DNA of 39,458 nt from the IMG/VR virus record IMGVR_UViG_2698536397_000026; one strand, 5' to 3'. Positions within the stretch are counted from its first letter, which is position 1; each line of letters opens with the position of its first letter. This document shows, in pieces, positions 1-39,458 of this stretch. This DNA comes from a virus (taxonomy: Duplodnaviria; Heunggongvirae; Uroviricota; Caudoviricetes). The translations under genes were made by a program, and so were the position numbers. The notes under the pieces are model-generated. The model saw only the letters and a program-made list of their open reading frames with translations, had not been told where the DNA came from and did not search any database.

Positions 1-108
1 ATGACGCTCGCGAAGTTTGCCATGATTTTCTGGCACGACCTGGCAGCACCGATCCTGGCGGGGATTATTACCGCAGCGATTGTCGGCTGGTGGCGTAACC
101 GGAAGTAA
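1..108 (+). CDS. ldr: Ldr-family type I toxin peptide (35 aa), flanking host copy 1
   Basis: 35-aa hydrophobic ORF MTLAKFAMIFWHDLAAPILAGIITAAIVGWWRNRK; matches my recollection of E. coli Ldr toxins (FWHDLAAP motif); near-identical copy at 39351..39458. Confidence 0.6.
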   Translation: MTLAKFAMIFWHDLAAPILAGIITAAIVGWWRNRK

Positions 109-1496: not shown

Positions 1497-3587
1497 ATGT
1501 ATGTCATTGCAAAAGAACTGATTGGCGCGCCCGGAATGCCTGCTACAACAAAAGGTATTCGCCAGGCATTACAACGTTACGTACAAGGGAAAAGCTGTTG
1601 TTCCCGTCGTCGCTCAGGCTCTAAAGCAACTGAATACAGCATCGACTGTTTACCTGAAGTGACGCAGCAGGCATTACGTGAACGTTATGCCCTGCAACTG
1701 ATGACGCAAAAAGCCGATGAATCACCGGCTCCGGTGGTGACAAAGGCCAGACGCTCATCTGACGTGGTTGATGCGGTGGAGGCATATCGCGGATCACCAC
1801 AACTGATGGTCGAACGCCTCAATGCCCTGACTGAAAACCAGCGCCAGGTGGCTGATGCACGAATCGCGATCGTCAGCGAAGTGATGAAAGTCGCGCAACA
1901 ACCCGGTTTCAGCTGCGCGAAAGCTATCCGGTTTATCGTTGACAACCTGGCACGTTCGCAACTGGACGAGCGCATTGTGGCAATGGTTGAGACGGCGAAC
2001 GCCAAAAAGGGAAACAGCCGTGCGTTGAGTGAAATAACGCTGAAACGCTGGATTGCGGCCTTTAACAAGGCGCAGAACGCCGCTGAACGCCTGCTTTTAC
2101 TGGCACCGGGTAAGCGCCAGGAAATAAAAGCCGAAGATATTAACTGGCTGCCCGAATTTCTGGCGCAGTATCGCCAGTCAAACGGCCGACCAATGACCGA
2201 GGCTTACGAGGATTTTGTCGCTGAATGGCAGCACCGGCACGCTGATGAGCCTTATATGCTCGATATCATGCCGTCTTATGACACCATTCGCCGCGCAATG
2301 AAGAAACTGCCGGAAGTGGTGAAACAAAAAGGCCGGGTGACCGGCAGTGAATACCGCCAGCTTGAGGGATTCACGCGCCGCGACTGGTCAAAAATGCCGG
2401 TGAATTATGTCTGGATTGGTGACGGTCACGGCATGAAGCTGAAATGCGCACACCCGGTTCACGGTCGGCCATTTGCACCGGAAGTGACCTTTGTTATCGA
2501 CGGTGGCACGCGCTTTGTGGTGGGCTGGAGCCTTGACCTGGCTGAAAATGTTTTCGCCGTAGCCGGTGCCATACAGCACGGCATTCGCCATCACGGCAAA
2601 CCGTTTCTGTATTACTCGGATAACGGCTCCGGGGAAACCGCCGACATCCTGGATAAGGAGGTTGTGGGGATACTGCCGCGACTGGGGATTAATCACCCGA
2701 CCGGGATTGCCGGTAATCCGCAGGGACGAGGCATTATCGAACGGCTTAACCGCACATTACCGATGCGCATAGCCCGTAAATACCGCACCTATTTCGGGAA
2801 AGGTGCAGATCGCGAGACGTTACGCAAAACCAACCGCGATTTACGCTCGGCATTTACTGCCCTGCAACAGGGCAAACGGCTGAACGCCCGGCAGCAGTCA
2901 GCGATGCGTGATTTACCGTCCTGGTCTGAACTGATTGATGCCATTCGTGACGGTGTTGAGTGGTACAACAACCGGCCGCACGATGAATTACCGGTGAAGC
3001 CGAACGGCAAGCATTACAGCCCGGCGGAGTTCAGAAAAAAACGCCTGGCGGAAGAGGACACGGAAATTGAATGGCTGTCCGATGTTGAGCTGCGGGATAT
3101 GTTCCGGCCGATGGTGGAACGCCCTGTAAGACGCTGTGAAATACGCTGGCTGAATAATATTTACTACGCGCCCGAGCTGCGTGACGAGCATGGTCGTAAG
3201 GTGCTTATCAGCTATGACATTCATGATGCCGAACGAATTACCGTACGTCGCCTGGATGGCAGCGTGATTTGCGAGGCGGTATGGGACGGTAATAAACGCG
3301 AAGCCTTCCCGGTTAGCGCGGAATACTACAAACAGCAGCAACGCCTTAAAGGCATGCGTAAACGCGCAGAGGAAAAAATCCGTGATGCCGAGGATGAGGT
3401 TGTCAACGTGCTGGAGCACAAGCCGCAGGAGCCCTGGCTGGAAAACATATACCGCCCTGTGGGTAATACGGTGACCGTTCAGCAACCGGTCGCTGACGAT
3501 GAACCTGATGAAGAATACGAGCGTAATTTCCAGCGGGGATTGCAGTTGCTGGAAGCGAAATTAAAAGAAAATGACCCGCTGGCCTGA
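1497..3587 (+). CDS. A: Mu-type DDE transposase (MuA-like)
   Basis: 696 aa, second gene of early operon, start overlaps ner stop (TGATATG); size and position as MuA. Confidence 0.85.
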   Translation: MYVIAKELIGAPGMPATTKGIRQALQRYVQGKSCCSRRRSGSKATEYSIDCLPEVTQQALRERYALQLMTQKADESPAPVVTKARRSSDVVDAVEAYRGSPQLMVERLNALTENQRQVADARIAIVSEVMKVAQQPGFSCAKAIRFIVDNLARSQLDERIVAMVETANAKKGNSRALSEITLKRWIAAFNKAQNAAERLLLLAPGKRQEIKAEDINWLPEFLAQYRQSNGRPMTEAYEDFVAEWQHRHADEPYMLDIMPSYDTIRRAMKKLPEVVKQKGRVTGSEYRQLEGFTRRDWSKMPVNYVWIGDGHGMKLKCAHPVHGRPFAPEVTFVIDGGTRFVVGWSLDLAENVFAVAGAIQHGIRHHGKPFLYYSDNGSGETADILDKEVVGILPRLGINHPTGIAGNPQGRGIIERLNRTLPMRIARKYRTYFGKGADRETLRKTNRDLRSAFTALQQGKRLNARQQSAMRDLPSWSELIDAIRDGVEWYNNRPHDELPVKPNGKHYSPAEFRKKRLAEEDTEIEWLSDVELRDMFRPMVERPVRRCEIRWLNNIYYAPELRDEHGRKVLISYDIHDAERITVRRLDGSVICEAVWDGNKREAFPVSAEYYKQQQRLKGMRKRAEEKIRDAEDEVVNVLEHKPQEPWLENIYRPVGNTVTVQQPVADDEPDEEYERNFQRGLQLLEAKLKENDPLA

Positions 3588-3658: not shown

Positions 3659-4591
3659 ATGACTGATATTAACGATGTAATCAAGACCATTGATGAACTT
3701 ATTGATGGCGGCGTACTGACGCAGTATGCCATCGCCAGAGAGGCGGGAATTTCCGACGGCACATTATCGGCTTTCCGTAAGGGAAAATATAAAGGCGATA
3801 ACGCTGCTGTGGCTGCTTCCCTGCGTTCCTGGTATGAGAACTGGAATAAACAAAGCGCACTGCCGGAACCGCCGCAGTTTGTGGAAACGCAGACAGTCCA
3901 GGAGCTGCGCGCACTGTTTCAGGCGGTTCGTCTGATGGGCTGTATTAACGTTATTGTGGGCGTACCGGGTGTGGGTAAAACGGCCACTGCCCGTAATTAC
4001 TGCCAGGAGCAACCAAACACCTGGATGATCACCCTGTCACCCGCGCACTCCAGCGTCACGGAGTGTCTGCTGGAGCTGGCCGATGCGCTGGGGATTGATT
4101 ACACCCGCGCGAACAAAGGGGCATTATCCCGCGCCATCCGCCGTCGCCTGATGGGAACGCGTGGACTGGTGATTGTGGATGAGGCGGATCATCTTGGTAT
4201 TGACGGTCTGGAGCAACTCCGGGCAATTCAGGACGCCACGGGGATCGGGATGGTGCTTATTGGTAACCCGCGCGGATTGTTTAAAGGTGGACGCCGCGCC
4301 TTTGATGATTTATCGCGCCTGTTCAGCCGTCTTGCCCGTACAAAACAACTTCGCAAGGCCAAAAAGGCGGATGTGCTGGCCATTGCCAGGGCGTGGGGGA
4401 TCAGTGGTGAGGCCGAGCTGGCCGTCATGCAGGCTATCGCTGAAAAGCCGGGAGCGTTACGCGTTCTGACACATACGCTTAACCAGGCGTGGCTCACCGC
4501 CAGCGGTGAAGGCGCGGCGCTGACAGAAAAACATATTAATGCGGCCTTTAAAGAGGTTTATACCAACCCTGAATTACTCTCACAGGTGTGA
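3659..4591 (+). CDS. B: transposition ATPase / target DNA activator (MuB-like)
   Basis: 310 aa; Walker A GVPGVGKT and Walker B LVIVDEAD; directly after transposase. Confidence 0.85.
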   Translation: MTDINDVIKTIDELIDGGVLTQYAIAREAGISDGTLSAFRKGKYKGDNAAVAASLRSWYENWNKQSALPEPPQFVETQTVQELRALFQAVRLMGCINVIVGVPGVGKTATARNYCQEQPNTWMITLSPAHSSVTECLLELADALGIDYTRANKGALSRAIRRRLMGTRGLVIVDEADHLGIDGLEQLRAIQDATGIGMVLIGNPRGLFKGGRRAFDDLSRLFSRLARTKQLRKAKKADVLAIARAWGISGEAELAVMQAIAEKPGALRVLTHTLNQAWLTASGEGAALTEKHINAAFKEVYTNPELLSQV

Positions 4592-8169: not shown

Positions 8170-8721
8170 ATGATGATTTTACAACCCATGGGGCGAAAAG
8201 GTCAGGCACCTGCTCATGTCCGTGCGTGGACACCTGAAGAAGATGCGCTGCTGATTGCGCTTTATCCATCCACCCCGGTTAAGGATATTGCTGTCAGGGT
8301 AAAAAGAAGTTTCTGGGGTGTACATAACCGGATTGTTTTATTACGCGGTACTTACCCGGAGTTGCTCAAATGCAAACGTCCAAGATTTAAACATGATGAA
8401 GATAAATTTATCCGAAAAAATGCCAGAACGATGACCGGTAAGCAAATAGGAGAATATCTGGGGCGAGACCGGGATTCTGTCCACAATCGGGCGCGATATA
8501 TTGGCGTAAGCATGAAAAAATACGGAGAATTGCTGCCCTTCACCCGTATACCTGACGATGATGTTCATCTTATTCGTGAATTACGGGATGCTGAATCACC
8601 ACGACGTCTTACCTTCCGGGAAATAGGCGAGAAATTTGAATTATCCGAGAGTACGGTGAATTTTATTTATCACCATCGCCGGACTGCCGAGGACGCTGTA
8701 TTACGGGAGTTAACGCCATGA
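8170..8721 (+). CDS. hypothetical early protein with three internal HTH-like repeats (183 aa)
   Basis: Three about 45-aa repeats each beginning with an acidic triplet (EED / DED / DDD) and containing a helix-turn-helix-like segment (two with SVHNR / GVHNR). Confidence 0.5.
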   Translation: MMILQPMGRKGQAPAHVRAWTPEEDALLIALYPSTPVKDIAVRVKRSFWGVHNRIVLLRGTYPELLKCKRPRFKHDEDKFIRKNARTMTGKQIGEYLGRDRDSVHNRARYIGVSMKKYGELLPFTRIPDDDVHLIRELRDAESPRRLTFREIGEKFELSESTVNFIYHHRRTAEDAVLRELTP

Positions 8722-8903
8722 TAAAGAGACTTGTATTTTTCGCAATTTTCGTTCCGGTGTTGGGGGTTGGTTTTATATTTGCGATTACAGGAAACCTGTC
8801 CATGATGCCAGATATTTGGTTCTTTATCAGGATGTCGCTCTTCCTGTTTATTATGAATCTTCTTATCGACATATATATCCGTATTACTGGAAAACATAAA
8901 TGA
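8718..8903 (+). CDS. small membrane peptide (61 aa, two predicted TM helices)
   Basis: ATGA overlaps on both sides; hydrophobic FFAIFVPVLGVGFIFAI and FFIRMSLFLFIMNLLI. Confidence 0.45.
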   Translation: MIKRLVFFAIFVPVLGVGFIFAITGNLSMMPDIWFFIRMSLFLFIMNLLIDIYIRITGKHK

Positions 8904-9274: not shown

Positions 9275-9464
9275 TCTACCCGCTGGATGGGCGCGCCCTC
9301 TGATGGCTAAGAAGCATCATTTTTTTAAAACTGGCGATAATATCAGTATATGTAGGCGGTGGTTATATCTGGCTCATAATCGCGAGCCGGATACATTTGA
9401 AAGCCCTGATGACTGTGCCGAATGTCGCAGAAGACTGAATAAGGAGAAAGATAATGGACAATAG
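9267..9464 (+). CDS. small Cys-containing protein (65 aa)
   Basis: ORF overlapping neighbours; C-terminal CAEC pair. Confidence 0.4.
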   Translation: MNSLPAGWARPLMAKKHHFFKTGDNISICRRWLYLAHNREPDTFESPDDCAECRRRLNKEKDNGQ

Positions 9465-9750
9465 TTCTCTGTTGTTCTGGTGCTTATATATCACATCCTT
9501 TTTCGGCGCATTTGTTATTACCCGGTGGTTATGTCGAAAAATCATCTGCTTTTTTGATAAAAGACATCCGGTTGAACGGGCGGCTGATGCGCTCATTCAG
9601 CAGGCCATTGTGTTATATAGCGGTGAATTTTTCTGCCGGATAACAACCAGAGATGGCTGGCACATAATGATTATTCCACCAACACACCATGCCCGGTGGG
9701 ATGAGGCAGAAAAGGCTTTCCATGTCCGTAAAAAGGTAAATACGGTATGA
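9454..9750 (+). CDS. hypothetical membrane-anchored early protein (98 aa)
   Basis: N-terminal hydrophobic LLFWCLYITSFFGAFVI; ATGA overlap with gemA. Confidence 0.5.
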   Translation: MDNSSLLFWCLYITSFFGAFVITRWLCRKIICFFDKRHPVERAADALIQQAIVLYSGEFFCRITTRDGWHIMIIPPTHHARWDEAEKAFHVRKKVNTV

Positions 9751-10256
9751 GAGGAAAACTGATATCCGCCATTCATGTGGCAAAGCGCGAGCTTGCCCTG
9801 GATGATGAGACTTATACATCCGCGCTGCTGGCAGCCACCGGCAAAACCAGCTGCCGGGATATGTCACCGGATGAGTTATCCCGCGTGCTGGATGTTTTCA
9901 AAAAACGCGGTTTTAAAGTGCGTCAGAACCCGGTTAACCGGGCCTTAAAACCGGGTACGGTGACCGCCAAAATTCGCGCCATCTGGAAGGTGATGCACCG
10001 GCAGGGCTTTATCTCTGATGGTGCGGAAACCGCCCTTAACCGCTGGGTGAAATCGCAGACGGCCGCGCAAAACGGCGGCGAAGGTGTGGCAAACTGGCAG
10101 TGGCTGGAGCAACACCCCGCCCTGGCCTCAGATGTGCTGGAGCGTCTCAAGCGATGGCACCGCCGCAAAATGCTGGCCGCGATGGGAATGCCCGAACGCA
10201 CGCTGATGGGGTATGACGCCGTTTGCAGGCAGTATGAAAAATCACTTCCCCGTTAA
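9747..10256 (+). CDS. gemA: GemA / Mu gp16-like regulatory protein
   Basis: 169 aa, last gene of early operon; N-terminal IHVAKRELALDDETY...TGKTSCRDMSPDEL pattern typical of GemA family as I recall it. Confidence 0.65.
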   Translation: MRGKLISAIHVAKRELALDDETYTSALLAATGKTSCRDMSPDELSRVLDVFKKRGFKVRQNPVNRALKPGTVTAKIRAIWKVMHRQGFISDGAETALNRWVKSQTAAQNGGEGVANWQWLEQHPALASDVLERLKRWHRRKMLAAMGMPERTLMGYDAVCRQYEKSLPR

Positions 10257-10260
10257 CTCC

Positions 10261-10290
10261 AAATCCCGCCACAACGCGGGATTTTTATTT
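10261..10290 (+). terminator. rho-independent terminator ending the early operon
   Basis: AAATCCCGC-CACAAC-GCGGGATTT hairpin followed by TTTATTTT. Confidence 0.65.
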
Positions 10291-10325
10291 TAAACTTACC
10301 GGGAACGCGAGAACCGGAGGCTGAT

Positions 10326-10751
10326 ATGGCAGAAACTCAGATGAGCATGTTTGGTGGTGACAGTGAGCAACTGCACGCCCTTATCGACCGCCTTGATGAC
10401 ATCCCTGATGATGTTCTCAAAAAGAACTGGCCGCGGACCCTGTCAGAACTGGTTGAAGTCACCGGCGCAGAACTTCAGCGTCAGGGGATTGAGCCGGTAC
10501 TGGCCGGTAAACTGGCACGCAAGGTGGCTGCGGCTCAGGCAGCCTATATGGGCGGACGGGGTTATTACCTGCCGGTCGGGGAATCTCTCTTTGCCGAGCT
10601 GCGAAACAATGAGATATTTTCGCGCTGGGACCGGGGCGAGAAAATTGAATCCCTTCGCCGCCATTACCGGATGTCAGAAACCCAGATTTATACCGTCATA
10701 CGCGAACAGCGCCGTCTGCATCTGGCAAGAACGCAACCGCCACTTTTCTGA
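10326..10751 (+). CDS. Mor/C-family transcriptional activator (middle/late gene activator)
   Basis: 141 aa; C-terminal HTH region and ending ...QPPLF, similar to Mu Mor / C proteins as I recall them; own RBS GGAGG after terminator. Confidence 0.7.
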   Translation: MAETQMSMFGGDSEQLHALIDRLDDIPDDVLKKNWPRTLSELVEVTGAELQRQGIEPVLAGKLARKVAAAQAAYMGGRGYYLPVGESLFAELRNNEIFSRWDRGEKIESLRRHYRMSETQIYTVIREQRRLHLARTQPPLF

Positions 10752-10822
10752 TATTCCGCAAAGCCTGCCGCCTCTCCTTCACCGTTACGCTGACTCAGAG
10801 AACATCATGAGACAGCGTAACA

Positions 10823-11323
10823 ATGCCAAAACTCCCCGCACCACTGCGTAAAAAGCTGATTGCCCTTGTTCTGGCCGGTGCCGGGACGTTCACGATTGCC
10901 ACGCATTACACCGGTTACTGGGAAGGGAAAGAAAACTCCACGTATATCGATCCCACCGGTACACCCACCATCTGTTACGGCCATACCGGCCCGGATGTGA
11001 AACCGGGTATGACCCTGACAGATGAAGAATGCCTGGAACTACTGGAAAAGGACATGAAATGGGCCTTTGCGGCCATTGATCGGCGTGTTCAGGTGCCGCT
11101 TACCCGTGGTCAGACGGTGGCGCTGGCTTCGTGGATCTTCTGGGCCGGTGAAACGAACTTTCGCAACTCCACGCTTCTGCGCCTGATCAATGCCGGGCAG
11201 ATGCCCGCGTCCTGTAAGCAGTATATCCGCTGGATTTATTCAAAGGGGGTGAAACTCCCCGGCCTTGAGGCCCGCCGTTCGGCGGATGAATGGTTATGTC
11301 GCTACGACTTGCCGAAAGTCTGA
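10823..11323 (+). CDS. lys: endolysin, T4-lysozyme-like (GH24), probable signal-anchor-release (SAR) type
   Basis: 166 aa; hydrophobic N-terminus LIALVLAGAGTFTIA followed by YWEGKENSTYIDPTGTPTICYGHTG lysozyme catalytic region. Confidence 0.8.
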   Translation: MPKLPAPLRKKLIALVLAGAGTFTIATHYTGYWEGKENSTYIDPTGTPTICYGHTGPDVKPGMTLTDEECLELLEKDMKWAFAAIDRRVQVPLTRGQTVALASWIFWAGETNFRNSTLLRLINAGQMPASCKQYIRWIYSKGVKLPGLEARRSADEWLCRYDLPKV

Positions 11324-11396
11324 ACCGCTTCTGGCGACCGCTCATGATAGCGCTGCTGTGTGCGGTACTGCTGTTACGGGGTGTCCTGTGGCTGCG

Positions 11397-11786
11397 GTGA
11401 ATAATGCCTTACCGGCCCTGATTGCCGGGGCGTGCATGGCGGCGCTGGGGATTATCGCTGTACTGGTTGCCGCTATATGGGGAATGCACCAGAAGACGCA
11501 GCGCCTTGAAGACAATAATCAGGTGCTTGTGCGTGAGCGGGATGAGGCGCGTCAGGTGCTGGCAAATCAGCAGCACACCCTGCAACTCATTTCACAAATC
11601 AGTGAGGCGGCCACGAATGAAAAACAACAGAACATTCAGCACAGCGAGGGGCAGCAGAGCGTTGTCCGCCGGTCGCTGGCGGCAGTGCCTGCGGCCTCTG
11701 CCCCTGTTCCTGATGATGTGGCTGATCGGGTGCGCCGGGCCGTCTGTGAAATACGTGCCTGTGAAGCCGGTGCCGATCCCCGCTGA
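11397..11786 (+). CDS. i-spanin (Rz-like), GTG start proposed
   Basis: N-terminal TM segment LPALIAGACMAALGIIAVLVAAIWG then coiled-coil-like periplasmic region; directly after endolysin. Confidence 0.55.
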   Translation: MNNALPALIAGACMAALGIIAVLVAAIWGMHQKTQRLEDNNQVLVRERDEARQVLANQQHTLQLISQISEAATNEKQQNIQHSEGQQSVVRRSLAAVPAASAPVPDDVADRVRRAVCEIRACEAGADPR

Positions 11787-11988
11787 ATGGCTGGCTGACT
11801 GCCTGGTCCCTCCTGCGCCGGAGCCGTTCACGTTTGGGGCATCGGTCACTTACAACCTGCAACTGCTGGCGGTGATCAAGAACTGCAACGTGGACAAGGC
11901 CAGTATTCGTCGTCTGGAGGCGCGGCGACAACATGAATTTACTGATATGGCCGGAACGCCTGCTGTTCCGGCAGGAAAGACGAAGTAA
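11617..11988 (+). CDS. o-spanin (Rz1-like lipoprotein), nested in +1 frame within i-spanin
   Basis: MKNNRTF... signal with lipobox-like LIGC then Pro-rich mature region; starts inside the i-spanin gene in another frame. Confidence 0.6.
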   Translation: MKNNRTFSTARGSRALSAGRWRQCLRPLPLFLMMWLIGCAGPSVKYVPVKPVPIPAEWLADCLVPPAPEPFTFGASVTYNLQLLAVIKNCNVDKASIRRLEARRQHEFTDMAGTPAVPAGKTK

Positions 11989-11998
11989 GGAAAAAGGT

Positions 11999-12226
11999 AT
12001 GGATGATTCAGATCGTGCTCAGGCTGTGATGGAGCGGGGATCAGAACGCGCCCTTTGTAACCGGCTGACACGTAAGCGCCGGGCAATGGATGCTCCGGGC
12101 AGACGTGTCTGCGCGGACTGTGGCGGAGAGATCCCCGCCGCACGTCTTGTTGCTGTGCCGGATGCCATCCGTTGTGTGAACTGCCAGAACATCATGGAGG
12201 CCCGTCATGTGGGTCAGCATCGTTAA
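11999..12226 (+). CDS. TraR/DksA-type C4 zinc-finger protein (75 aa)
   Basis: CADCGGEIP...RCVNCQ four-Cys motif; RBS AAGGAAAAAGG; start at ATG 11999 (track ORF starts 11933). Confidence 0.6.
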   Translation: MDDSDRAQAVMERGSERALCNRLTRKRRAMDAPGRRVCADCGGEIPAARLVAVPDAIRCVNCQNIMEARHVGQHR

Positions 12227-12515
12227 AGATTATGTTGTGCCGATCCTTTCGGCGACGGCAACCGCTGGCGGGATATTCATGGCGCTGATGCGCAAAACGT
12301 TTGTCCCCCGCGAGGCCTTTGAAAAACTCTCCGACCGCGTTGAGAAGGTGGAAACCCGCCTGTCGTCACTGCCGACAGAAGCCGAGGTCAACCGTCTGAA
12401 TGTGGAAATCGTGACCCTGCGGGGTGAACTGAAAACCACGAACGCCACGCTCCGCTCTGTCTCCTATCAGAACGAACTGCTGCTGGAGCAGGCTGTAAGG
12501 AAAAAAACGCAATGA
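12207..12515 (+). CDS. membrane-anchored coiled-coil protein (102 aa), possibly lysis- or morphogenesis-associated
   Basis: N-terminal hydrophobic VVPILSATATAGGIFMALM followed by heptad-like region. Confidence 0.5.
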   Translation: MWVSIVKDYVVPILSATATAGGIFMALMRKTFVPREAFEKLSDRVEKVETRLSSLPTEAEVNRLNVEIVTLRGELKTTNATLRSVSYQNELLLEQAVRKKTQ

Positions 12516-12802
12516 GTGATTTCATTACTGAAGATCAGCGTCTGGTCATTCTGCGGTCGCTGGCAGATTACAACGGTGAACTGGGTGAATCCGTGCTCCA
12601 GGACTGTCTGGATGATTACGGCCACCGCGTGTCCCGCGACACCGTTCACACCCACATTGCCTGGCTTGCCGAGCAGGGACTGGTGCGTAAGCGCACGCTC
12701 GTTAACGGTTATTTCATCGCCGAACTGACCGGCCGGGGTCAGGATGTGGCGGAAGGTCGCGCCAGCGTTCCAGGTGTGAAGAAACCACGCGCAAGGGGGT
12801 AA
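12512..12802 (+). CDS. hypothetical protein (96 aa)
   Basis: ATGA-coupled ORF. Confidence 0.5.
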   Translation: MSDFITEDQRLVILRSLADYNGELGESVLQDCLDDYGHRVSRDTVHTHIAWLAEQGLVRKRTLVNGYFIAELTGRGQDVAEGRASVPGVKKPRARG

Positions 12803-12804
12803 CG

Positions 12805-13386
12805 ATGGACAAGCCGACGCGTGGACGCGTGCGCAAGGTGGATTTGCTCCCCGACAGCATCCGTAAGCCACTGCTGGAAATGCTGCGTGAAAAACGTCTG
12901 ACGCAGGTCCAGATACGCGAGGAAATCAACCGTCTGATCCGTGAGGCGGGCCTGCCGGAAGAGCAGCAGCTTTCACCGGCGGCCATCAGCCGGGAAGCCT
13001 CCCGTAATGAGCTGATTGCCCGTAACCTGCGTGATTTACGCGAGCAGACAAAAGCCATGATGGCCGAACTGGGAGACAAGCCAACCGGTGAAACCACAGC
13101 GCTGATTCTGGAGATGTCCCGCGCCCTGATGTACCGCCGTCTGCGTGCCGCGACCGAATCCCTGAACAGTGACAGCGACGTGGATATGCGTCTTATTAAG
13201 GACATCCTCCTGTCAGCACAGCGTGCGGAAAGTGCCGCCGAGCGCAGCATTAAGCGTGAAAAAGAAATCCGGGCCGCATTTGCTGAAGAGATGGCAAACG
13301 CCGTCACCGACGAGCTGCGCGGCGTGGACGGGATGAGTGAACAGCTTGAGTCCCGTATTAAGGGGATTCTGTTGGGTAAAGCCTGA
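12805..13386 (+). CDS. DNA-binding / small terminase-like protein (Mu gp27-like)
   Basis: 193 aa immediately upstream of large terminase; RBS AAGGGGG. Confidence 0.5.
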   Translation: MDKPTRGRVRKVDLLPDSIRKPLLEMLREKRLTQVQIREEINRLIREAGLPEEQQLSPAAISREASRNELIARNLRDLREQTKAMMAELGDKPTGETTALILEMSRALMYRRLRAATESLNSDSDVDMRLIKDILLSAQRAESAAERSIKREKEIRAAFAEEMANAVTDELRGVDGMSEQLESRIKGILLGKA

Positions 13387-15050
13387 TGAATAACGCCGAA
13401 GAACTCTCCCCCTTACTGACGAATACCGTCTCCACCCGCAAAATTGATCTGGCCGGTGAAAAAGCCCTGCTGGGCGTGGATGTGCCGGACAGCCTTGATT
13501 TGCCCGGTGATATGCCGGTATTTCTGGATTATCAGGCCCGCTGGTTTGAGGATGAAAGCGAGGTCTGCATCGCGGAAAAATCCCGCCGCACCGGGCTTAC
13601 CTGGGCGGAAGCCGGGCGTAACGTCATTACCGCCGCAAAGCCTAAGCGGCGTGGTGGCCGCAATGTGTTTTATGTGGGGTCAAAGCAGGAGATGGCGCTG
13701 GAATATATTTCTGCCTGCGCACTGTTCTCCCGTGCCTTTAACCAGCTGGCAGATGCTGATGTGTATGAGCAGACCTTCTGGGATCGGGATAAAAAAGAAG
13801 AAATTCTGACCTACATGATCCGCTTTCCGAACAGTGGATTCAAAATTCAGGCACTGTCTTCCCGTCCGTCAAACCTGCGCGGCCTTCAGGGGGATGTGGT
13901 GATTGATGAAGCCGCGTTCCACGAGTCACTGGATGAGCTTCTCAAGGCGGCAATGGCGCTCACCATGTGGGGCGCGCGCGTGCGTATTATCTCCACGCAT
14001 AACGGCGTCGATAATCTGTTTAATCAGTACATTCAGGAAGCCCGCGAAGGGCGCAAGGATTACAGCGTCCACCGCATTACCCTGGATGATGCCATTGCGG
14101 ACGGGCTGTACCGTCGTATCTGTTATGTCACCGGCCGCGAATGGTCACCGGAAAGCGAGCAGAAGTGGCGTGATGATCTCTACAAAAACGCCCCGACCCG
14201 TGAGGATGCCGACGAGGAATACGGCTGTATCCCGAAAAAATCCGGCGGTGCCTATATTCCTCACGCGCTTATTGAAATGGCGATGCTCCGCGACATCCCG
14301 ATTCTGACGTTTGAAGCCCCGGACGACTTCATCAGCCGTGCCGCATGGCTGCGTGAATCGGAGGTTTTAACCTGGTGTGAAGAACATTTAAAACCGCTTT
14401 TAGAGGCGTTAAATCCCCGTTCCCGCTTCAGCTTCGGGGAAGACTTTGCCCGCATCGGTGACCTCTCCTGCTTTGTGCTGCTGGAAATCACTGAATCCCT
14501 GGCAAAACGCGAGGTGTTTCGCGTGGAGCTGCGCAACCTGCCGTATGCCCAGCAGGAGCAGGTGATGATGTACATCCTGACCCGCGTTCCGGCGCTGGTC
14601 GGTGCGGCGTTCGACGCCACCGGTAACGGCGGCTATCTGGCCGAAGCCGCGCTGCTGGCCTTTGGCCCGGACATCATCGACTGCGTGATGTTATCGCCGA
14701 AGTGGTACGGCGAGTGGATGCCAAAACTGAAGGCCGAGTTTGAGGATCAGAATATCCTCGTCGCCCGCCATCAGACCACGCTTGATGATTTGCGCCATGT
14801 GAAGGTGGTGAACGGTATCCCGCAAATTGACAAGGGGCGTACGAAGGACCAGAACGCAACGGCTGTGAACGCCCGCCGCCATGGCGATTTTGCCGTGGCG
14901 CTCTGTATGGCAAACCGGGCGTCATACATGGAGGGCTTCATCCTGGATGAATCAGCCTGTCAGGCGCTGCCGGAGCGGTCGCGGGCCATGGAGGGCGGTT
15001 ATCGTGATGACGATGAGGCATATCATGAATTTGATCGGGGGTGCTGGTAG
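13386..15050 (+). CDS. terminase large subunit (Mu gp28-like)
   Basis: 554 aa; Walker-B-like GDVVIDEAAFHE; position before portal. Confidence 0.7.
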   Translation: MNNAEELSPLLTNTVSTRKIDLAGEKALLGVDVPDSLDLPGDMPVFLDYQARWFEDESEVCIAEKSRRTGLTWAEAGRNVITAAKPKRRGGRNVFYVGSKQEMALEYISACALFSRAFNQLADADVYEQTFWDRDKKEEILTYMIRFPNSGFKIQALSSRPSNLRGLQGDVVIDEAAFHESLDELLKAAMALTMWGARVRIISTHNGVDNLFNQYIQEAREGRKDYSVHRITLDDAIADGLYRRICYVTGREWSPESEQKWRDDLYKNAPTREDADEEYGCIPKKSGGAYIPHALIEMAMLRDIPILTFEAPDDFISRAAWLRESEVLTWCEEHLKPLLEALNPRSRFSFGEDFARIGDLSCFVLLEITESLAKREVFRVELRNLPYAQQEQVMMYILTRVPALVGAAFDATGNGGYLAEAALLAFGPDIIDCVMLSPKWYGEWMPKLKAEFEDQNILVARHQTTLDDLRHVKVVNGIPQIDKGRTKDQNATAVNARRHGDFAVALCMANRASYMEGFILDESACQALPERSRAMEGGYRDDDEAYHEFDRGCW

Positions 15051-34172: not shown

Positions 34173-34733
34173 ATGCTGATTGGCTATATACGCGTATCAA
34201 CAAATGACCAGAACACAGGTTTACAAAGAAATGCGCTGGAATGTGCAGGATGTGAGCAGATTTTTGAAGATAAAATGAGCGGAAAAACAACGCAGCGGCC
34301 GGGACTGAAGCGGGCACTGAAGAAACTAAAACCCGGTGACACGCTGATGGTCTGGAAACTGGACAGGCTGGGGCGCAGTATGCGCCACCTTGTTGCGCTG
34401 ACAGATGAATTACAGCAACAGGGGATAAATTTTCGTAGTCTTACTGACAACATTGATACGTCAACCCCCATGGGGCGCTTCTTTTTTCACATAATGGGTG
34501 CGCTGGCAGAAATGGAGCGTGAATTAATTGTCGAACGGACACGGGCTGGTCTTGCAGCTGCCCGTGAAAGGGGACGAACCGGCGGCAGACCCCGTCGTCT
34601 CACGCAGGAACAATACGAGCAGGTCGGGCGTTTACTGGCCGGGGGTGTCAGTCGAAGACAGGTGGCACTTATTTTTGATATCGGCCTTTCAACCCTTTAT
34701 CGTTATTATCCTGCGAGCGTTTCGGAAAAATAA
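34173..34733 (+). CDS. gin: serine recombinase, DNA invertase (Gin/Hin/Cin family)
   Basis: 186 aa; MLIGYIRVSTNDQ... catalytic Ser motif and C-terminal HTH; RBS AAGGAAGG. Confidence 0.9.
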   Translation: MLIGYIRVSTNDQNTGLQRNALECAGCEQIFEDKMSGKTTQRPGLKRALKKLKPGDTLMVWKLDRLGRSMRHLVALTDELQQQGINFRSLTDNIDTSTPMGRFFFHIMGALAEMERELIVERTRAGLAAARERGRTGGRPRRLTQEQYEQVGRLLAGGVSRRQVALIFDIGLSTLYRYYPASVSEK

Positions 34734-34823: not shown

Positions 34824-36881
34824 ATGAATATTATGACGTCCAAATGGGTTCAACTATCATCAATGCCCGGAAACTTTACCGTTAAAGTTTCCGGTGGTAC
34901 AGCGGCATTTCTTGAGGCTCCCTTTCCTCCTGCTGAAACGAAAGGAGGAATGACATTTGCTGACTGTCTCATCAGTTTTAATACACAGGATTGCCTGTGG
35001 GTAAGGCCAGTATCCGGTGATCCGAACGTGGAAATTACCGGAGCGGGTATTGGTGCTGTCATTCCGTTAAGTGCTGATGTTGCCGGTACTACTGAACCGT
35101 CAGACTGGGATAATGCAGAAACACATACCCGTCCGGCAGGAAATGAAACTGCTTCCAGCTCCCCTTCCTGGTATTACGTGATTGTTATAGCCGGCCAGTC
35201 CAATGCTTCATCTTATGGTGAAGGGTTGCCCCTTCCGGATTCTTATGATCGTCCTGATCCACGTATTATGCAGCTGGCACGCAGGAATACACAAACCCCC
35301 GGAGGTATTCCCTGCAAATACAATGAAATCATTCCAGCAGATCACTGCCTTCATGATGTTCAGAATATGAGTCTGCTGAACCATCCAAAAGCAGACCTGA
35401 AAAAAGGGCAGTATGGTTGTGTGGGGCAGGGACTTCATATTGCGAAAAAAGTATTACCGGTGATTCCTGCTGATGCCGGGATTTTACTGGTTCCCTGTGC
35501 CCGTGGCGGCTCTGCTTTTACAACCGGCGCAGTTGGCTCATTCGATCCGGCAAGTGGTGCAGCCGAGGCGTCACTACGCTGGGGAGTGGATACCCCACTG
35601 TATCAGGATCTTGTCAGTCGAACTAAAGCGGCACTTGAGGCGAATCCAAAGAATGTGCTGTTATCTGTCGTATGGATTCAGGGGGAAGGAGACCTTAAAG
35701 CGACCCCGGCCCAGCATGGTGCCCAGTTTACTGCGATGGTGAAAAAATTCCGTGCGGATCTTGGTGCTTTCTCCGGTCAGTGTATTGGTGGTTCATCAGA
35801 CAGTGTGCCGTGGTTATGTGGTGACACAACCTATGACTGGAAAGAGAAGAACCCGGCGGCATATGAAACCATTTATAGCGGATATAAAAACCGGGCTTCC
35901 GAGAACATTCACTTTGTTCCACTGATGCACGATGAGTTCGGTAATAAAACCGCGACCAACCTGCCGGAGCACGACCCGGATATCGCTTCTGCCGGGTATT
36001 ATGGTGCGGAATCACGGGGAGATGGCAACTGGACAACAGCATCCAGGGCAACCCATTTTAGCTCCTGGGCGCGCCGTTTTCTGGTCTCAGATCGTTTTGC
36101 ATCAGCAATTCTTAAATATGCAGGTCTGACCTCTGCATTTATTGCCGGTGTGGCCCCTGATGGTGAAGCCCTGCCTCAGCCCGCGCCGGGTGGGAAACCG
36201 GAAGCGCCGACAGGTAGTCAGCCAGGAGGCAGTGAGTCCCCCCATCCGACATCCCCGTCACTCCGTACGCTGCTTTCACTTAAAGCATCAGCAGGAGAAG
36301 CCCCGGCTCAGGGCTGGAAAATTACAGATGGTACAATCCAGCTGACGGACGAAGGTAAAGCGTTGACCGTATCCAAACAAAGCGGAAAAACCTGGACGCT
36401 TACCCATGGAACTGATGCAGCCGGTGAACTTCTGAAGCATGGTGGTCAGTTGACCTGTAAATTCCGTCTGTCAGGTGAAGTAAAAGAAGGCCAGTTTGCT
36501 CTGGGTATTTACCTCCACACCGATACGGTCCCGGAAGGTGTAACCATGAGTGGTACAGGCACACCGTTCCTGATGGCGTATTATCTCCAGACAACAGGCG
36601 GCCAGTTAAATCTGATGCACCATAAAACAGGGGGGAATACGAAACTGGGATCATTTGGAGCCTACAATAACCAGTGGCATACACTTGTCCTGAAGTTTAC
36701 GGCGGGAAGTGCCCAGGTAACGCCTGTGCTGGATGGCACTCCGGGCCAGGCATTCCAGATGGTGAAAGATGCACTTTCCCCTGCCAAAGATACGCTGACA
36801 CTGACAGATGTCACCAAAGGGGCAACTTATGGCGTGTCTTTTGAGAGCGTTGTCCTTGAGGTTAATACCCCTGCGGCATAA
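34824..36881 (+). CDS. SASA/SGNH-family carbohydrate esterase (sialate O-acetylesterase-like) with Pro-rich linker and C-terminal beta-sandwich/lectin-like domain; cargo gene
   Basis: 685 aa; block I IAGQSNASSYGEG, block WIQGEGD, no N-terminal signal peptide; Pro-rich linker PQPAPGGKPEAPTGSQPGGSESPHPTSPS; not part of the Mu gene set. Confidence 0.65.
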   Translation: MNIMTSKWVQLSSMPGNFTVKVSGGTAAFLEAPFPPAETKGGMTFADCLISFNTQDCLWVRPVSGDPNVEITGAGIGAVIPLSADVAGTTEPSDWDNAETHTRPAGNETASSSPSWYYVIVIAGQSNASSYGEGLPLPDSYDRPDPRIMQLARRNTQTPGGIPCKYNEIIPADHCLHDVQNMSLLNHPKADLKKGQYGCVGQGLHIAKKVLPVIPADAGILLVPCARGGSAFTTGAVGSFDPASGAAEASLRWGVDTPLYQDLVSRTKAALEANPKNVLLSVVWIQGEGDLKATPAQHGAQFTAMVKKFRADLGAFSGQCIGGSSDSVPWLCGDTTYDWKEKNPAAYETIYSGYKNRASENIHFVPLMHDEFGNKTATNLPEHDPDIASAGYYGAESRGDGNWTTASRATHFSSWARRFLVSDRFASAILKYAGLTSAFIAGVAPDGEALPQPAPGGKPEAPTGSQPGGSESPHPTSPSLRTLLSLKASAGEAPAQGWKITDGTIQLTDEGKALTVSKQSGKTWTLTHGTDAAGELLKHGGQLTCKFRLSGEVKEGQFALGIYLHTDTVPEGVTMSGTGTPFLMAYYLQTTGGQLNLMHHKTGGNTKLGSFGAYNNQWHTLVLKFTAGSAQVTPVLDGTPGQAFQMVKDALSPAKDTLTLTDVTKGATYGVSFESVVLEVNTPAA

Positions 36882-38014: not shown

Positions 38015-38215
38015 ATGTATCGAAACATACGGTGCCGACACTGCAATAAGCTACTGGCACGGGCCAGTTTCAGTTATCTGGAAGTAAAATGTCCGCGCTG
38101 TAAAACCCTCAATCAAATCACATCTCCGAGCGCCACAGAGCACCCCACATACACAAGGAAATCCTGTCGTGGGGAACAGAAAGCAAGTCACATCCCGTAT
38201 CATCAGCACGCCTGA
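38015..38215 (+). CDS. com: Com-like zinc-finger translational activator of mom
   Basis: [30 protein letters not shown] closely parallels Mu Com zinc finger as I recall it; RBS AGGAGG; overlaps downstream mom-like ORF. Confidence 0.8.
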
Positions 38216-38906
38216 ACTTATTCGCTATAACGACAATATCGTTGGTTATGGCTCCCGTGAGTTGCGGGTTGAGACAATAAGTTGCTGGCTGGCCAGACTG
38301 GTTATCGTCAATAAACATTACAGCCACCGTTTCGTAAATAATTCCTACCTTCATCTGGGTATATTTTCAGAACGGGAACTTGTTGGCGTAATGCAATGGG
38401 GTTACGCCCTTAACCCAAACAGTGGTGCACGCGTCGTAACGGGTACGCAGAACCGAGAATATATGGAGCTTAACCGGCTATGGATGCATGACTGTATGCC
38501 GAGAAACTCCGAATCAAGGGCAATCAGTTACGCGCTCAAGCTAATCAGGCAGCTTTATCCGCAGGTACAGTGGGTTCAGTCGTTTGCAGATGAGCGTTGT
38601 GGCTGTCTTGGTGTCGTGTATCAGGCAAGCAATTTTGATTATGTAGGCAGCCATGAATCAACATTCTATGAACTTGATGGCGAGTGGTATCACGAGATTT
38701 GCAGGAGTGCCATTAAACGAGGCGGACAACGAGGTGAACATCTGAGGGCTAATATCGACAGAGCCAGTGTGCATAAGTTCCGACAGTTTCGTTACATCCG
38801 GTTTCTGAACAAGAGGGCCAGAAAACGCCTCAACACAAAGCTATTCAAAGTCCAGCCTTACCCAAAACCACAAACAGTTAAAACTGGTTTGAAAGAGAGT
38901 GAATGA
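38169..38906 (+). CDS. mom: Mom-like DNA modification protein; start codon uncertain
   Basis: 245-aa ORF overlapping com 3' end, last gene before right end, exactly as Mu mom; track start is GTG. Confidence 0.65.
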
Positions 38907-39036: not shown

Positions 39037-39350
39037 ACCCGAGCTGGAAGCATCATCCAGAGCCCTCATGAAACGACTGTAACAGCTGTTGAAAAACCGG
39101 AATGCACTCTTCATTGCAAACATTTCAGGGATGAAGTGAAGATGAATTGAGACGTAGTATCCACATCAAGCCGGCGTTATCCGGTGAGGCGCAATGTTGC
39201 GGGGGCTTTATCCCTGGTGGCATTGGTTGCTGGAAAGAGAAAACCCCCGCACGTTGAGAGGTTTAACCTGACAACAGAACGGGGGCTAATCTTGAACCAG
39301 AACAATTCAAGAATAGCCGCAAAATGTTGTCATTACAACAAGGCGGCTAT

Positions 39351-39458
39351 ATGACGCTCGCGCAGTTTGCCATGATTTTCTGGCACGACCTGGCAGCACC
39401 GATCCTGGCGGGAATTATTACCGCAGCGATTGTCGGCTGGTGGCGTAACCGGAAGTAA
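39351..39458 (+). CDS. ldr: Ldr-family type I toxin peptide (35 aa), flanking host copy 2
   Basis: MTLAQFAMIFWHDLAAPILAGIITAAIVGWWRNRK; differs from copy 1 at 2 of 108 nt (K5Q plus one silent change). Confidence 0.6.
   Translation: MTLAQFAMIFWHDLAAPILAGIITAAIVGWWRNRK

Follow-up and report, generated by a model that had tools for sequence, protein, structure and literature searches.

How does a Mu-like prophage without a recognizable holin gene in its late operon release its endolysin, and does a TraR-type zinc-finger gene in the same group of genes take part in the timing of lysis? Both questions are raised by a stretch of 39,458 nucleotides (nt) from a tailed virus (Caudoviricetes; IMG/VR record IMGVR_UViG_2698536397_000026), which is referred to here as the window. 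An earlier note on this DNA had described positions 11397-12226 as a lysis cassette with a signal-anchor-release (SAR) type of endolysin, two spanins and a TraR/DksA-type gene. We find here the ordinary late operon for lysis of a Mu-like prophage, which is common in Shiga-toxin E. coli; it is an uncharacterized relative of the Mu-type releasin cassette. By analogy with Mu, this promoter-proximal part of the late "lys" operon most likely works as the phage Mu lysis system does; we give this interpretation a probability of roughly three in four. All components listed in the earlier note belong to described families, and all except the SAR nature of the endolysin are already named in RefSeq.

Gene order and predicted function of the operon

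The operon and the activator gene in front of it comprise the following features. All of them are on the plus strand, and the positions are those of the window.

10326-10751 (+), activator of late transcription from the Mor/C family (Pfam Mor PF08765, 111 bits)
10752-10822 (+), intergenic DNA with a putative activator-dependent late promoter similar to Mu Plys (by inference)
10823-11323 (+), GH24 muramidase with a likely N-terminal SAR-type signal-anchor (PF00959, 127 bits; phrog_7, endolysin)
11290-11400 (+), small open reading frame (ORF) for a predicted membrane peptide, with 36 codons, or with 34 if translation begins at the conserved ATG 11296 (by conservation and by the ratio of nonsynonymous to synonymous polymorphism, pN/pS)
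about 11397-11786 (+), i-spanin similar to Rz/LysB, frame 0 (phrog_214 "Rz-like spanin", E 1e-32)
11617-11988 (+), o-spanin similar to Rz1/LysC, an outer-membrane lipoprotein in the +1 frame (Pfam LysC PF23793, 59.9 bits, cutoff 27)
11999-12226 (+), TraR-family C4 zinc-finger protein of 75 amino acids (aa) (TIGR02419 "TraR family", 77.8 bits, cutoff 59.7)
12207-12515 (+), DUF2730 protein of 102 aa, homolog of the Mu releasin gp25 (PF10805, 71.4 bits, cutoff 24.9, residues 6-97; phrog_736)

A synteny comparison gives the gene order of Mu, namely C-22-23-23.1-24-25-26-27-28, downstream of an activator of the Mor/C family. The proteins are identical to their Mu counterparts in 39% (C; E 4e-35), 39% (22), 27% (23), 42% (23.1), 34% (25; E 5e-18), 63% (26) and 57% (27) of the positions, with the lysis proteins in the range of 27-42%, and the genes of the lysis operon overlap or abut. 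The lysozyme, LysC, TraR, DUF2730, Mor and Gp27 matches are all above the curated family cutoffs. The stretch 11397-12226 indeed holds three real genes, for the i-spanin, the o-spanin and the TraR-family protein, whose family matches are far beyond chance. As an outline of the cassette it is too narrow, because the endolysin is encoded outside of it at 10823-11323 and because the cassette runs past 12226 to the DUF2730 gene at 12207-12515.

The mechanism of lysis is known from phage Mu, in which gp22 is a SAR endolysin, gp23 and gp23.1 are the spanins, a holin is absent and gp25 is required for the timely release of the SAR endolysin (PMC9239132, Chamblee et al. 2022). Expression of gp22 and gp25 from two plasmids is sufficient for lysis, without the protein from the gene-24 position (PMC9239132). 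The homologous genes in Mu order, the SAR features and catalytic residues of the endolysin, the setting in a transposable phage, the continuity of the operon without a terminator or a sigma-70 consensus promoter and the shared Plys-like blocks make it most likely that the same mechanism operates here.

The product of 10326-10751 is presumed to be the activator of the lysis and late operon; it matches phrog_532 "late transcriptional activator" with an E of 3e-45, and only 27% of its positions are identical to Mu Mor. We found no sigma-70 consensus promoter in 10200-13500 and no intrinsic terminator from 10823 to the terminase genes. When the DNA upstream of the lysozyme gene is aligned with Mu Plys and three related loci, a common ACC(G/A)nAATCC-like block and a TA...T element resembling a -10 box are seen, and we infer that a late promoter equivalent to Mu Plys is located in 10752-10822.

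The interval 9747-10822, from gemA to the lysozyme gene, contains a single gene of the Mor/C family, which is nearer to Mu C than to Mu Mor. Neither counterparts of Mu genes 18-20 nor a second Mor/C paralog were seen between gemA and the lysozyme gene, and a strong hairpin resembling an intrinsic terminator (10261-10284) lies after gemA and upstream of the activator gene. The early-to-late cascade may for these reasons be wired differently from that of Mu.

On this background lysis would proceed as follows. The Mor/C-family activator would switch on the activator-dependent late promoter upstream of 10823. The GH24 muramidase would be exported by Sec and, judging from its homologs Mu gp22 and R of phage 21, its weakly hydrophobic SAR domain with the strongly basic cytoplasmic tail would keep it tethered and inactive in the inner membrane. 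In analogy to Mu gp25, the membrane-tethered DUF2730 protein would promote the release of the SAR domain and would in this way set the onset of murein degradation instead of a holin. The overlapped pair of i-spanin and o-spanin would then fuse the inner and the outer membrane, as expected from their family membership. The membrane peptide of 34-36 residues is probably translated together with the lysozyme and the i-spanin, between whose genes it is encoded. The TraR-family protein would come from the same transcript and its gene is translationally overlapped with the releasin gene, but most likely it does not belong to the lysis proteins. It would bind in the secondary channel of the RNA polymerase and shut the host promoters for rRNA and ribosomal proteins, in the same manner as lambda Orf73 and four other homologs. 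Such a shutdown would free polymerase and resources for the expression of the late genes.

The endolysin and its putative releasin

The lysozyme starts with MPKLPAPLRKK, which is followed by LIALVLAGAGTFTIA. This N-terminus comprises a basic cytoplasmic tail (K3, R9, K10, K11) and a weakly hydrophobic segment of about residues 12-27. The mean Kyte-Doolittle hydropathy of residues 12-26 is 2.16 with 53% Gly/Ala/Ser/Thr; the SAR segment of Mu gp22 has by the same measure a hydropathy of 1.71, again with 53% Gly/Ala/Ser/Thr. The alignment with Mu gp22 begins at residue 1, and the catalytic residues E34-x8-D43-x5-T49 are invariant in the alignment with E37/D46/T52 of Mu. The catalytic Glu follows only 7 residues after the hydrophobic segment. 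The best relatives with a solved structure are R from phage 21 (3HDE/3HDF) and RrrD from DLP12 (4ZPU). The entries 3HDE and 4ZPU cover residues 5-161 of the query with an E of ~1e-24, and the alignment extends from the N-terminal "P-x-LRK" tail via the SAR segment to the E-x8-D-x5-T core. In phage 21 the endolysin goes together with the pinholin S21; here, in contrast, there is no S21-like pinholin gene upstream of the lysozyme gene and a DUF2730 releasin homolog is located downstream instead. By homology and composition the lysozyme is likely a SAR endolysin, and the signal-anchor that the earlier note had read from the N-terminus is in agreement with these comparisons.

The same N-terminus could also be read as an ordinary cleavable Sec signal. 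The lysozyme would then be secreted as a soluble protein and its activity would have to be restrained in some other way. The n-h-c layout with its basic n-region, an h-region of ~12-16 residues and small residues at positions -3 and -1, for example TIA in front of T, fits this description. However, an identical layout with candidate sites is found in Mu gp22, which is experimentally a SAR endolysin. In addition the segment can be aligned with the SAR domains of gp22 and of R from phage 21, the catalytic Glu is only 7 residues away from it, and a homolog of a releasin is encoded in the same operon. A cleaved and soluble lysozyme is in view of these data highly improbable.

The partner of the SAR endolysin in this interpretation is the DUF2730 protein. 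It has an N-terminal transmembrane segment VVPILSATATAGGIFMALM, followed by an R29-K30 motif at the junction and a cytoplasmic coiled-coil domain of 74 residues. An RR or RK motif at the border between membrane and cytoplasm has been noted for releasins (PMC9239132), which in the case of the gp25 kind (type I DUF2730) have an N-out, C-in topology, and an N-terminal transmembrane domain with an R-K motif is a feature shared with Mu. The gene begins 20 nt before the end of the TraR gene, and a GGAGG stands in front of its start. With the small ORF counted it takes the fifth place behind the lysozyme gene and is so within the five downstream genes that are considered for a releasin in a transposable phage. 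The releasin-type, holin-independent control of which the earlier note had spoken is made likely by this very protein, a homolog of Mu gp25 in the operon, although the note had not listed it.

Several features weigh against a Mu-like release of the endolysin. First, candidate sites for signal peptidase according to the -3/-1 rule are present in the lysozyme, e.g. between TIA and THY after residue 26. Kyte-Doolittle hydropathy and the -3/-1 rule, which were used here, do not tell a SAR domain apart from a signal peptide that is cleaved, and with such sites present the sequence does not decide on cleavage; candidate -3/-1 sites also occur in Mu gp22. Second, the releasin dependence of Mu gp22 is conferred by K6 and K7, and in an ungapped alignment the basic residues of the lysozyme are not at these positions. 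Third, the SAR segment contains 2 Gly, unlike the Gly-rich run of Mu, in which Gly takes up 6 of 7 successive positions, and with only 2 Gly the release might be spontaneous. Fourth, the cytoplasmic domain of the DUF2730 protein is net basic with 11 acidic and 14 basic residues, unlike that of Mu gp25, for which a predominantly anionic character has been described; such a charge belongs to the description of gp25 and is not a proven requirement. Finally, a holin function is conceivable for the two small membrane ORFs at 11290-11400 and 8718-8903.

A conserved small membrane ORF and the question of a holin

The first of these two ORFs is located in the third frame. Its start falls within the final 34 nt of the lysozyme gene, and its stop codon (TGA) shares nucleotides with GTG 11397. 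The product is MVMSLRLAESLNRFWRPLMIALLCAVLLLRGVLWLR; with the alternative start it can be written as M(VM)SLRLAESLNRFWRPLMIALLCAVLLLRGVLWLR. Relatives for a comparison came from an alignment-based endolysin profile scan of viral contigs, which gave 81 loci; a scan of genome contigs with the lysozyme as single query gave only Citrobacter braakii. In 16 distinct sequences, which come from 28 loci, the small ORF is intact and its length does not vary. Changes in its frame are conservative, with a pN/pS of 0.45, in contrast to the other two frames with 1.11 and 1.69. Its stop is even kept in strain STEC299, where TGA is changed to TAA; the same change destroys GTG 11397. Citrobacter (L011) and Salmonella (L094, L095) relatives also carry the ORF; the match is weaker for L033/L034, in which the lysozyme is only 49% identical. 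In three lineages the start of the i-spanin overlaps or directly follows the stop of the small ORF. In Mu and in the L037 and Serratia lineage the small ORF is absent, and the i-spanin gene there overlaps the lysozyme gene; the extra membrane ORF of 34-36 codons between the two genes distinguishes the operon from that of Mu, in which they overlap directly.

The peptide has one short hydrophobic stretch, which is interrupted by a conserved Arg; the best 19-residue window has a hydropathy of 2.31. The small ORF matched no family in Pfam or PHROG, and it is not called in the PGAP annotation of the records that were checked. A phmmer search against 1.84 billion cluster representatives returned a single true homolog of 34 aa (P0125) plus two repetitive false matches, and an exact look-up of six variants in a collection of 15 billion proteins found none of them. 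On the basis of the conservation data it is probable that the small ORF encodes a real small membrane peptide, which is under purifying selection.

We also considered a -1 frameshift in the lysozyme gene, which would lead into the small ORF and add a C-terminal membrane anchor. This was rejected since a stop codon (11287-11289) is located in that frame directly before the ATG; furthermore, no slippery heptamer was seen in 11290-11320 and the ATG at 11296 is conserved. In one viral contig (L026, 2501-3079) the lysozyme and the small ORF form a single continuous frame, which is probably the effect of an indel of 1 nt.

Outside of the cassette two ORFs in the early region encode small proteins with hydrophobic segments:

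8718-8903 (+), 61-aa protein with two hydrophobic/transmembrane segments (phrog_19804)
9454-9750 (+), 98-aa protein with one N-terminal hydrophobic segment (phrog_17269)

For SAR endolysins like that of phage 21 a pinholin is the normal partner. It is conceivable that a holin or a pinholin depolarizes the membrane and frees the SAR endolysin, with the peptide of 34-36 aa or the 61-aa protein as candidate and with the DUF2730 protein in an accessory role. The small ORF has some of the right attributes: it is part of the cassette, purifying selection acts on it and Mu does not have it. The 61-aa ORF on the other hand has two hydrophobic segments like class II holins, and a holin-like role of the early-region ORFs 8718-8903 and 9454-9750 is possible. 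Against this we found no match to a holin family in Pfam or PHROGs for either candidate, nor for any other ORF in or near the cassette. The single short hydrophobic stretch of the peptide is broken by the conserved Arg, and holins are not known to be as short as 34-36 aa. The 61-aa ORF belongs to the early region; it is upstream of gemA and of the terminator at 10261-10284 and outside of the late transcript. Also the close relatives L037 and L096 keep the pair of endolysin and releasin without the small ORF. For Mu itself it was shown that the membrane proteins of the middle genes, gp19 and gp20, do not function as holins (PMC9239132). Taken together these data render a holin unlikely, and release of the endolysin by a releasin of the Mu type is the preferred explanation.

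The overlapping spanin genes

The spanins have the typical architecture of a two-component system, in which an i-spanin with an N-terminal transmembrane domain is combined with a Pro-rich lipoprotein from the +1 frame that matches LysC. The i-spanin (E 1e-7 against Mu gp23) has an N-terminal transmembrane domain IAGACMAALGIIAVLVAAI with a hydropathy of 2.64; its periplasmic domain is helical and contains Cys117 and Cys122. Its start is uncertain; GTG 11397, GTG 11358, which is used by PGAP, and ATG 11436 are candidates. A start at GTG 11397 yields 129 aa, compared with 128 aa in Mu gp23, and it fits this length as well as the comparison of lineages. In strain STEC299, however, GTG 11397 is changed to GTA and PGAP uses ATG (11436); this ATG must serve as start wherever GTG 11397 is lost. 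A start far upstream (TTG 11265 or GTG 11358), up to which the frame is open, was rejected because of a pN/pS of 1.69 and radical substitutions upstream of 11397.

The Pfam match of the o-spanin (PF23793) starts at the lipobox, and phrog_456 and phrog_3001 match as well. The lipobox is LIGC with the lipidated residue at Cys39 (nt 11731-11733) and with Ala, and no Asp, at position +2. The mature protein has 85 aa, among them 11 Pro. Translation can start at ATG 11617, with GAGG 9 nt before it; an alternative is TTG 11662. Starts rich in M and K are found at the matching place in Citrobacter, L033, L037 and Mu.

The RefSeq (PGAP) annotation of "LysC" has a start at 11746. This is downstream of the codon for the lipobox Cys, and the annotated product has no signal peptide. 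With the signal peptide and the lipobox lost, this start is very probably wrong. Other records start the o-spanin even later or name the product hypothetical.

The +1 frame and the LIGC lipobox of the o-spanin are as the earlier note had given them, but the gene is not nested in that of the i-spanin. The two genes share 170 nt, and the o-spanin, with its end at 11988, reaches 202 nt farther than the i-spanin, which stops at 11786. The genes are therefore overlapped and not embedded, like LysB/LysC of P2 and gp23/23.1 of Mu and unlike Rz/Rz1 of lambda, since the o-spanin gene extends beyond the i-spanin gene.

An extra ORF of 98-124 aa without family match is found between the o-spanin and TraR genes in L029 (3593-3958), L094 (2134-2508) and L095 (2212-2508); its carriers are Citrobacter-type and Salmonella relatives.

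A complete TraR-family protein in the late operon

The four-Cys gene after the spanins had been assigned to the TraR/DksA type, and both sequence and fold favor TraR as the closest relative. The TIGR02419 match aligns residues 2-67 with positions 1-64 of the 64 model positions; the protein also matches PF01258 (45.9 bits, cutoff 24.9) and phrog_54. In a phmmer search the solved TraR chains 5W1S/6N57 were found over nearly the full length with an E of 2e-5, followed by DksA. An AlphaFold2 model, with a predicted local distance difference test score (pLDDT) of 77.8, contains a helix at 3-28, a zinc ribbon and a helix at 60-73. The best match of the model in a Foldseek search of the PDB is the RNA polymerase-bound TraR 6N57_M (probability 1.00, TM score 0.50-0.52, 73 columns), followed by DksA and DksA2. 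A DksA-like fold, which the earlier note had named as a check on the ORF, is thus present in the model. Because the E-values are modest (2e-3) and the root-mean-square deviation is high (8.5 Å), the fold match supports the assignment but does not prove it.

The functional hallmarks of TraR homologs are the DxxDxA motif, R48 and the C-terminal helix (PMC9239242, Gopalkrishnan et al. 2022), and the 75-aa protein has all three of them. D2/D5/A7 of the DxxDxA motif, the zinc ligands C38/C41/C59/C62 and R49, which is the equivalent of TraR R48, are invariant or nearly so in 62 homologs. A point against this interpretation is the equivalent of TraR R49, which is Leu in this clade as in DksA. The DxxDxA motif, the C4 ribbon with 17-residue spacing, the R48 equivalent and the C-terminal helix are shared with TraR from the F plasmid, lambda Orf73, P2 Orf82, VHML Orf8 and VP882 Orf61, and the length of 75 aa is close to the 73 aa of TraR. 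A strong Shine-Dalgarno sequence, AAGGA, precedes the ATG at 11999.

All five TraR homologs tested bind RNA polymerase, inhibit promoters of rRNA and ribosomal proteins and complement a dksA null mutant; lambda Orf73 raised the phage yield, and it is the host promoters for rRNA and ribosomal proteins that the characterized homologs target (PMC9239242). Proteins of this family regulate such promoters without ppGpp. The 75-aa protein is by comparison predicted to bind RNA polymerase in its secondary channel. The genomic position is different, however. Genes for TraR and the phage homologs are in early or transfer operons, whereas here the gene is in the late operon between the spanin and releasin genes.

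The earlier note had suggested that the protein might couple lysis timing to host transcription. As part of such a timing device it would link the release of the endolysin to the transcription of the host, for example together with the DUF2730 protein. In favor of this, the TraR gene is directly upstream of the DUF2730 gene and overlaps it in every relative of the clade that was examined. Among the 81 endolysin-related viral loci the two genes are either both present (26 loci, i.e. 26/26 for co-occurrence) or both absent (55 loci). The pair also occurs in the Vibrio phages Martha 12B12, 1.028.O and ZX4290, in Shewanella MuM16-2 and Klebsiella Kp4866-3 and in prophages of Salmonella, Serratia and Marinomonas; some of these phages have an endolysin of another type without SAR domain. 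In the literature searched there was no paper that names both DUF2730 and TraR.

Mu itself encodes a four-Cys protein at the matching position. This protein, gp24 (L002 3025-3219, annotated as hypothetical), has the CxxC-x17-CxxC spacing and the genomic slot of the TraR genes. It is truncated, falls below all TraR thresholds and lacks DxxDxA and the C-terminal helix, unlike the full TraR-family protein of the window; the TraR profile aligns with the zinc ribbon only (hhalign probability 60%, 29 columns). With no TraR match in Pfam or NCBIfam and without the two other elements gp24 was not accepted as a member of the family: homology is plausible and membership unproven. From its sequence gp24 may be a degenerate TraR.

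The observations that speak against a role in lysis timing carry more weight. The order of the late operon is conserved throughout Mu-like phages, with gp26, gp27 and the terminase following in all loci, and gp22 and gp25 of Mu lyse the cell alone (PMC9239132). For these two reasons the adjacency of the TraR and DUF2730 genes is weak evidence and no proof of a lysis role. The match of Mu gp24 is confined to the ribbon, and Pseudomonas phage JBD25 has a DUF2730 gene without any TraR gene. The characterized TraR homologs moreover act on host promoters and reside in early operons and not in lysis cassettes (PMC9239242). We found no evidence in favor of a coupling of lysis timing to host transcription by the TraR-family protein and consider it quite unlikely. 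A takeover of host transcription is the better-supported reading of this protein, while the adjacency to DUF2730 keeps a functional link possible.

The Mu-like prophage and its distribution

The family matches of its proteins identify the 39.5-kb window as a complete transposable prophage of the Mu kind. In addition to the lysis operon and Gp27, the small terminase, it encodes the following proteins:

1497-3587, Mu transposase (MuA)
3659-4591, MuB
9747-10256, GemA
34173-34733, Gin-type invertase
38169-38906, Mom

The lysis region (10800-12520) is present with at least 99% identity in 195 RefSeq records of E. coli; with a threshold of at least 80% it is found in 231 of 5426 complete E. coli genomes (~4%). 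Many of the carriers are O157:H7 and other Shiga-toxin-producing strains. In O157 Sakai the Mu-like prophage is named Sp18 and is predicted to be intact (PMC2669165). Identical DNA is contained in two records of Shiga toxin (Stx) phages, in which it is merely labeled "inserted Bacteriophage Mu-like phage".

A protein of 685 aa with a SASA sialate O-acetylesterase domain and DUF6645 is encoded at 34824-36881 (+), between the Gin-type invertase and Mom; this gene looks like cargo of the Mu-like prophage. The two ends of the window (1-108 and 39351-39458) are 98%-identical copies of an ORF of 35 codons, MTLA(K/Q)FAMIFWHDLAAPILAGIITAAIVGWWRNRK, which we take to resemble the Ldr type I toxins. The right copy is adjoined by a match to the Rfam antitoxin RNA rdlD (87.6 bits, 39238-39303, minus strand). 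The terminal ORF copies and the rdlD match together make it appear that the prophage sits within a long-direct-repeat (ldr/rdl) toxin-antitoxin locus.

Significance for Mu-type lysis

The releasin-type arrangement without holin is widespread in enterobacterial Mu-like prophages. The ancestral occupant of the "Mu gene 24" position would be a complete regulator of the TraR family, which is always found beside the releasin gene and of which Mu apparently keeps a degenerate version. Annotation has overlooked the conserved small ORF for a membrane peptide within the cassette, and the RefSeq start of the o-spanin at 11746 is very probably an annotation error worth correcting.

More speculatively, the Mu-type lysis without a holin may have extra parts, although we hold this to be rather doubtful. 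The small peptide may be a modulator of the release of the endolysin or of its timing, similar to an antiholin or a minimal holin, and/or TraR and DUF2730 may form a functional module. Such a module, if true, would explain why DUF2730 persists in phages without SAR endolysins. If the small peptide or the TraR-family protein does affect the timing of lysis, then the only holin-independent lysis system described for tailed phages would gain additional components.

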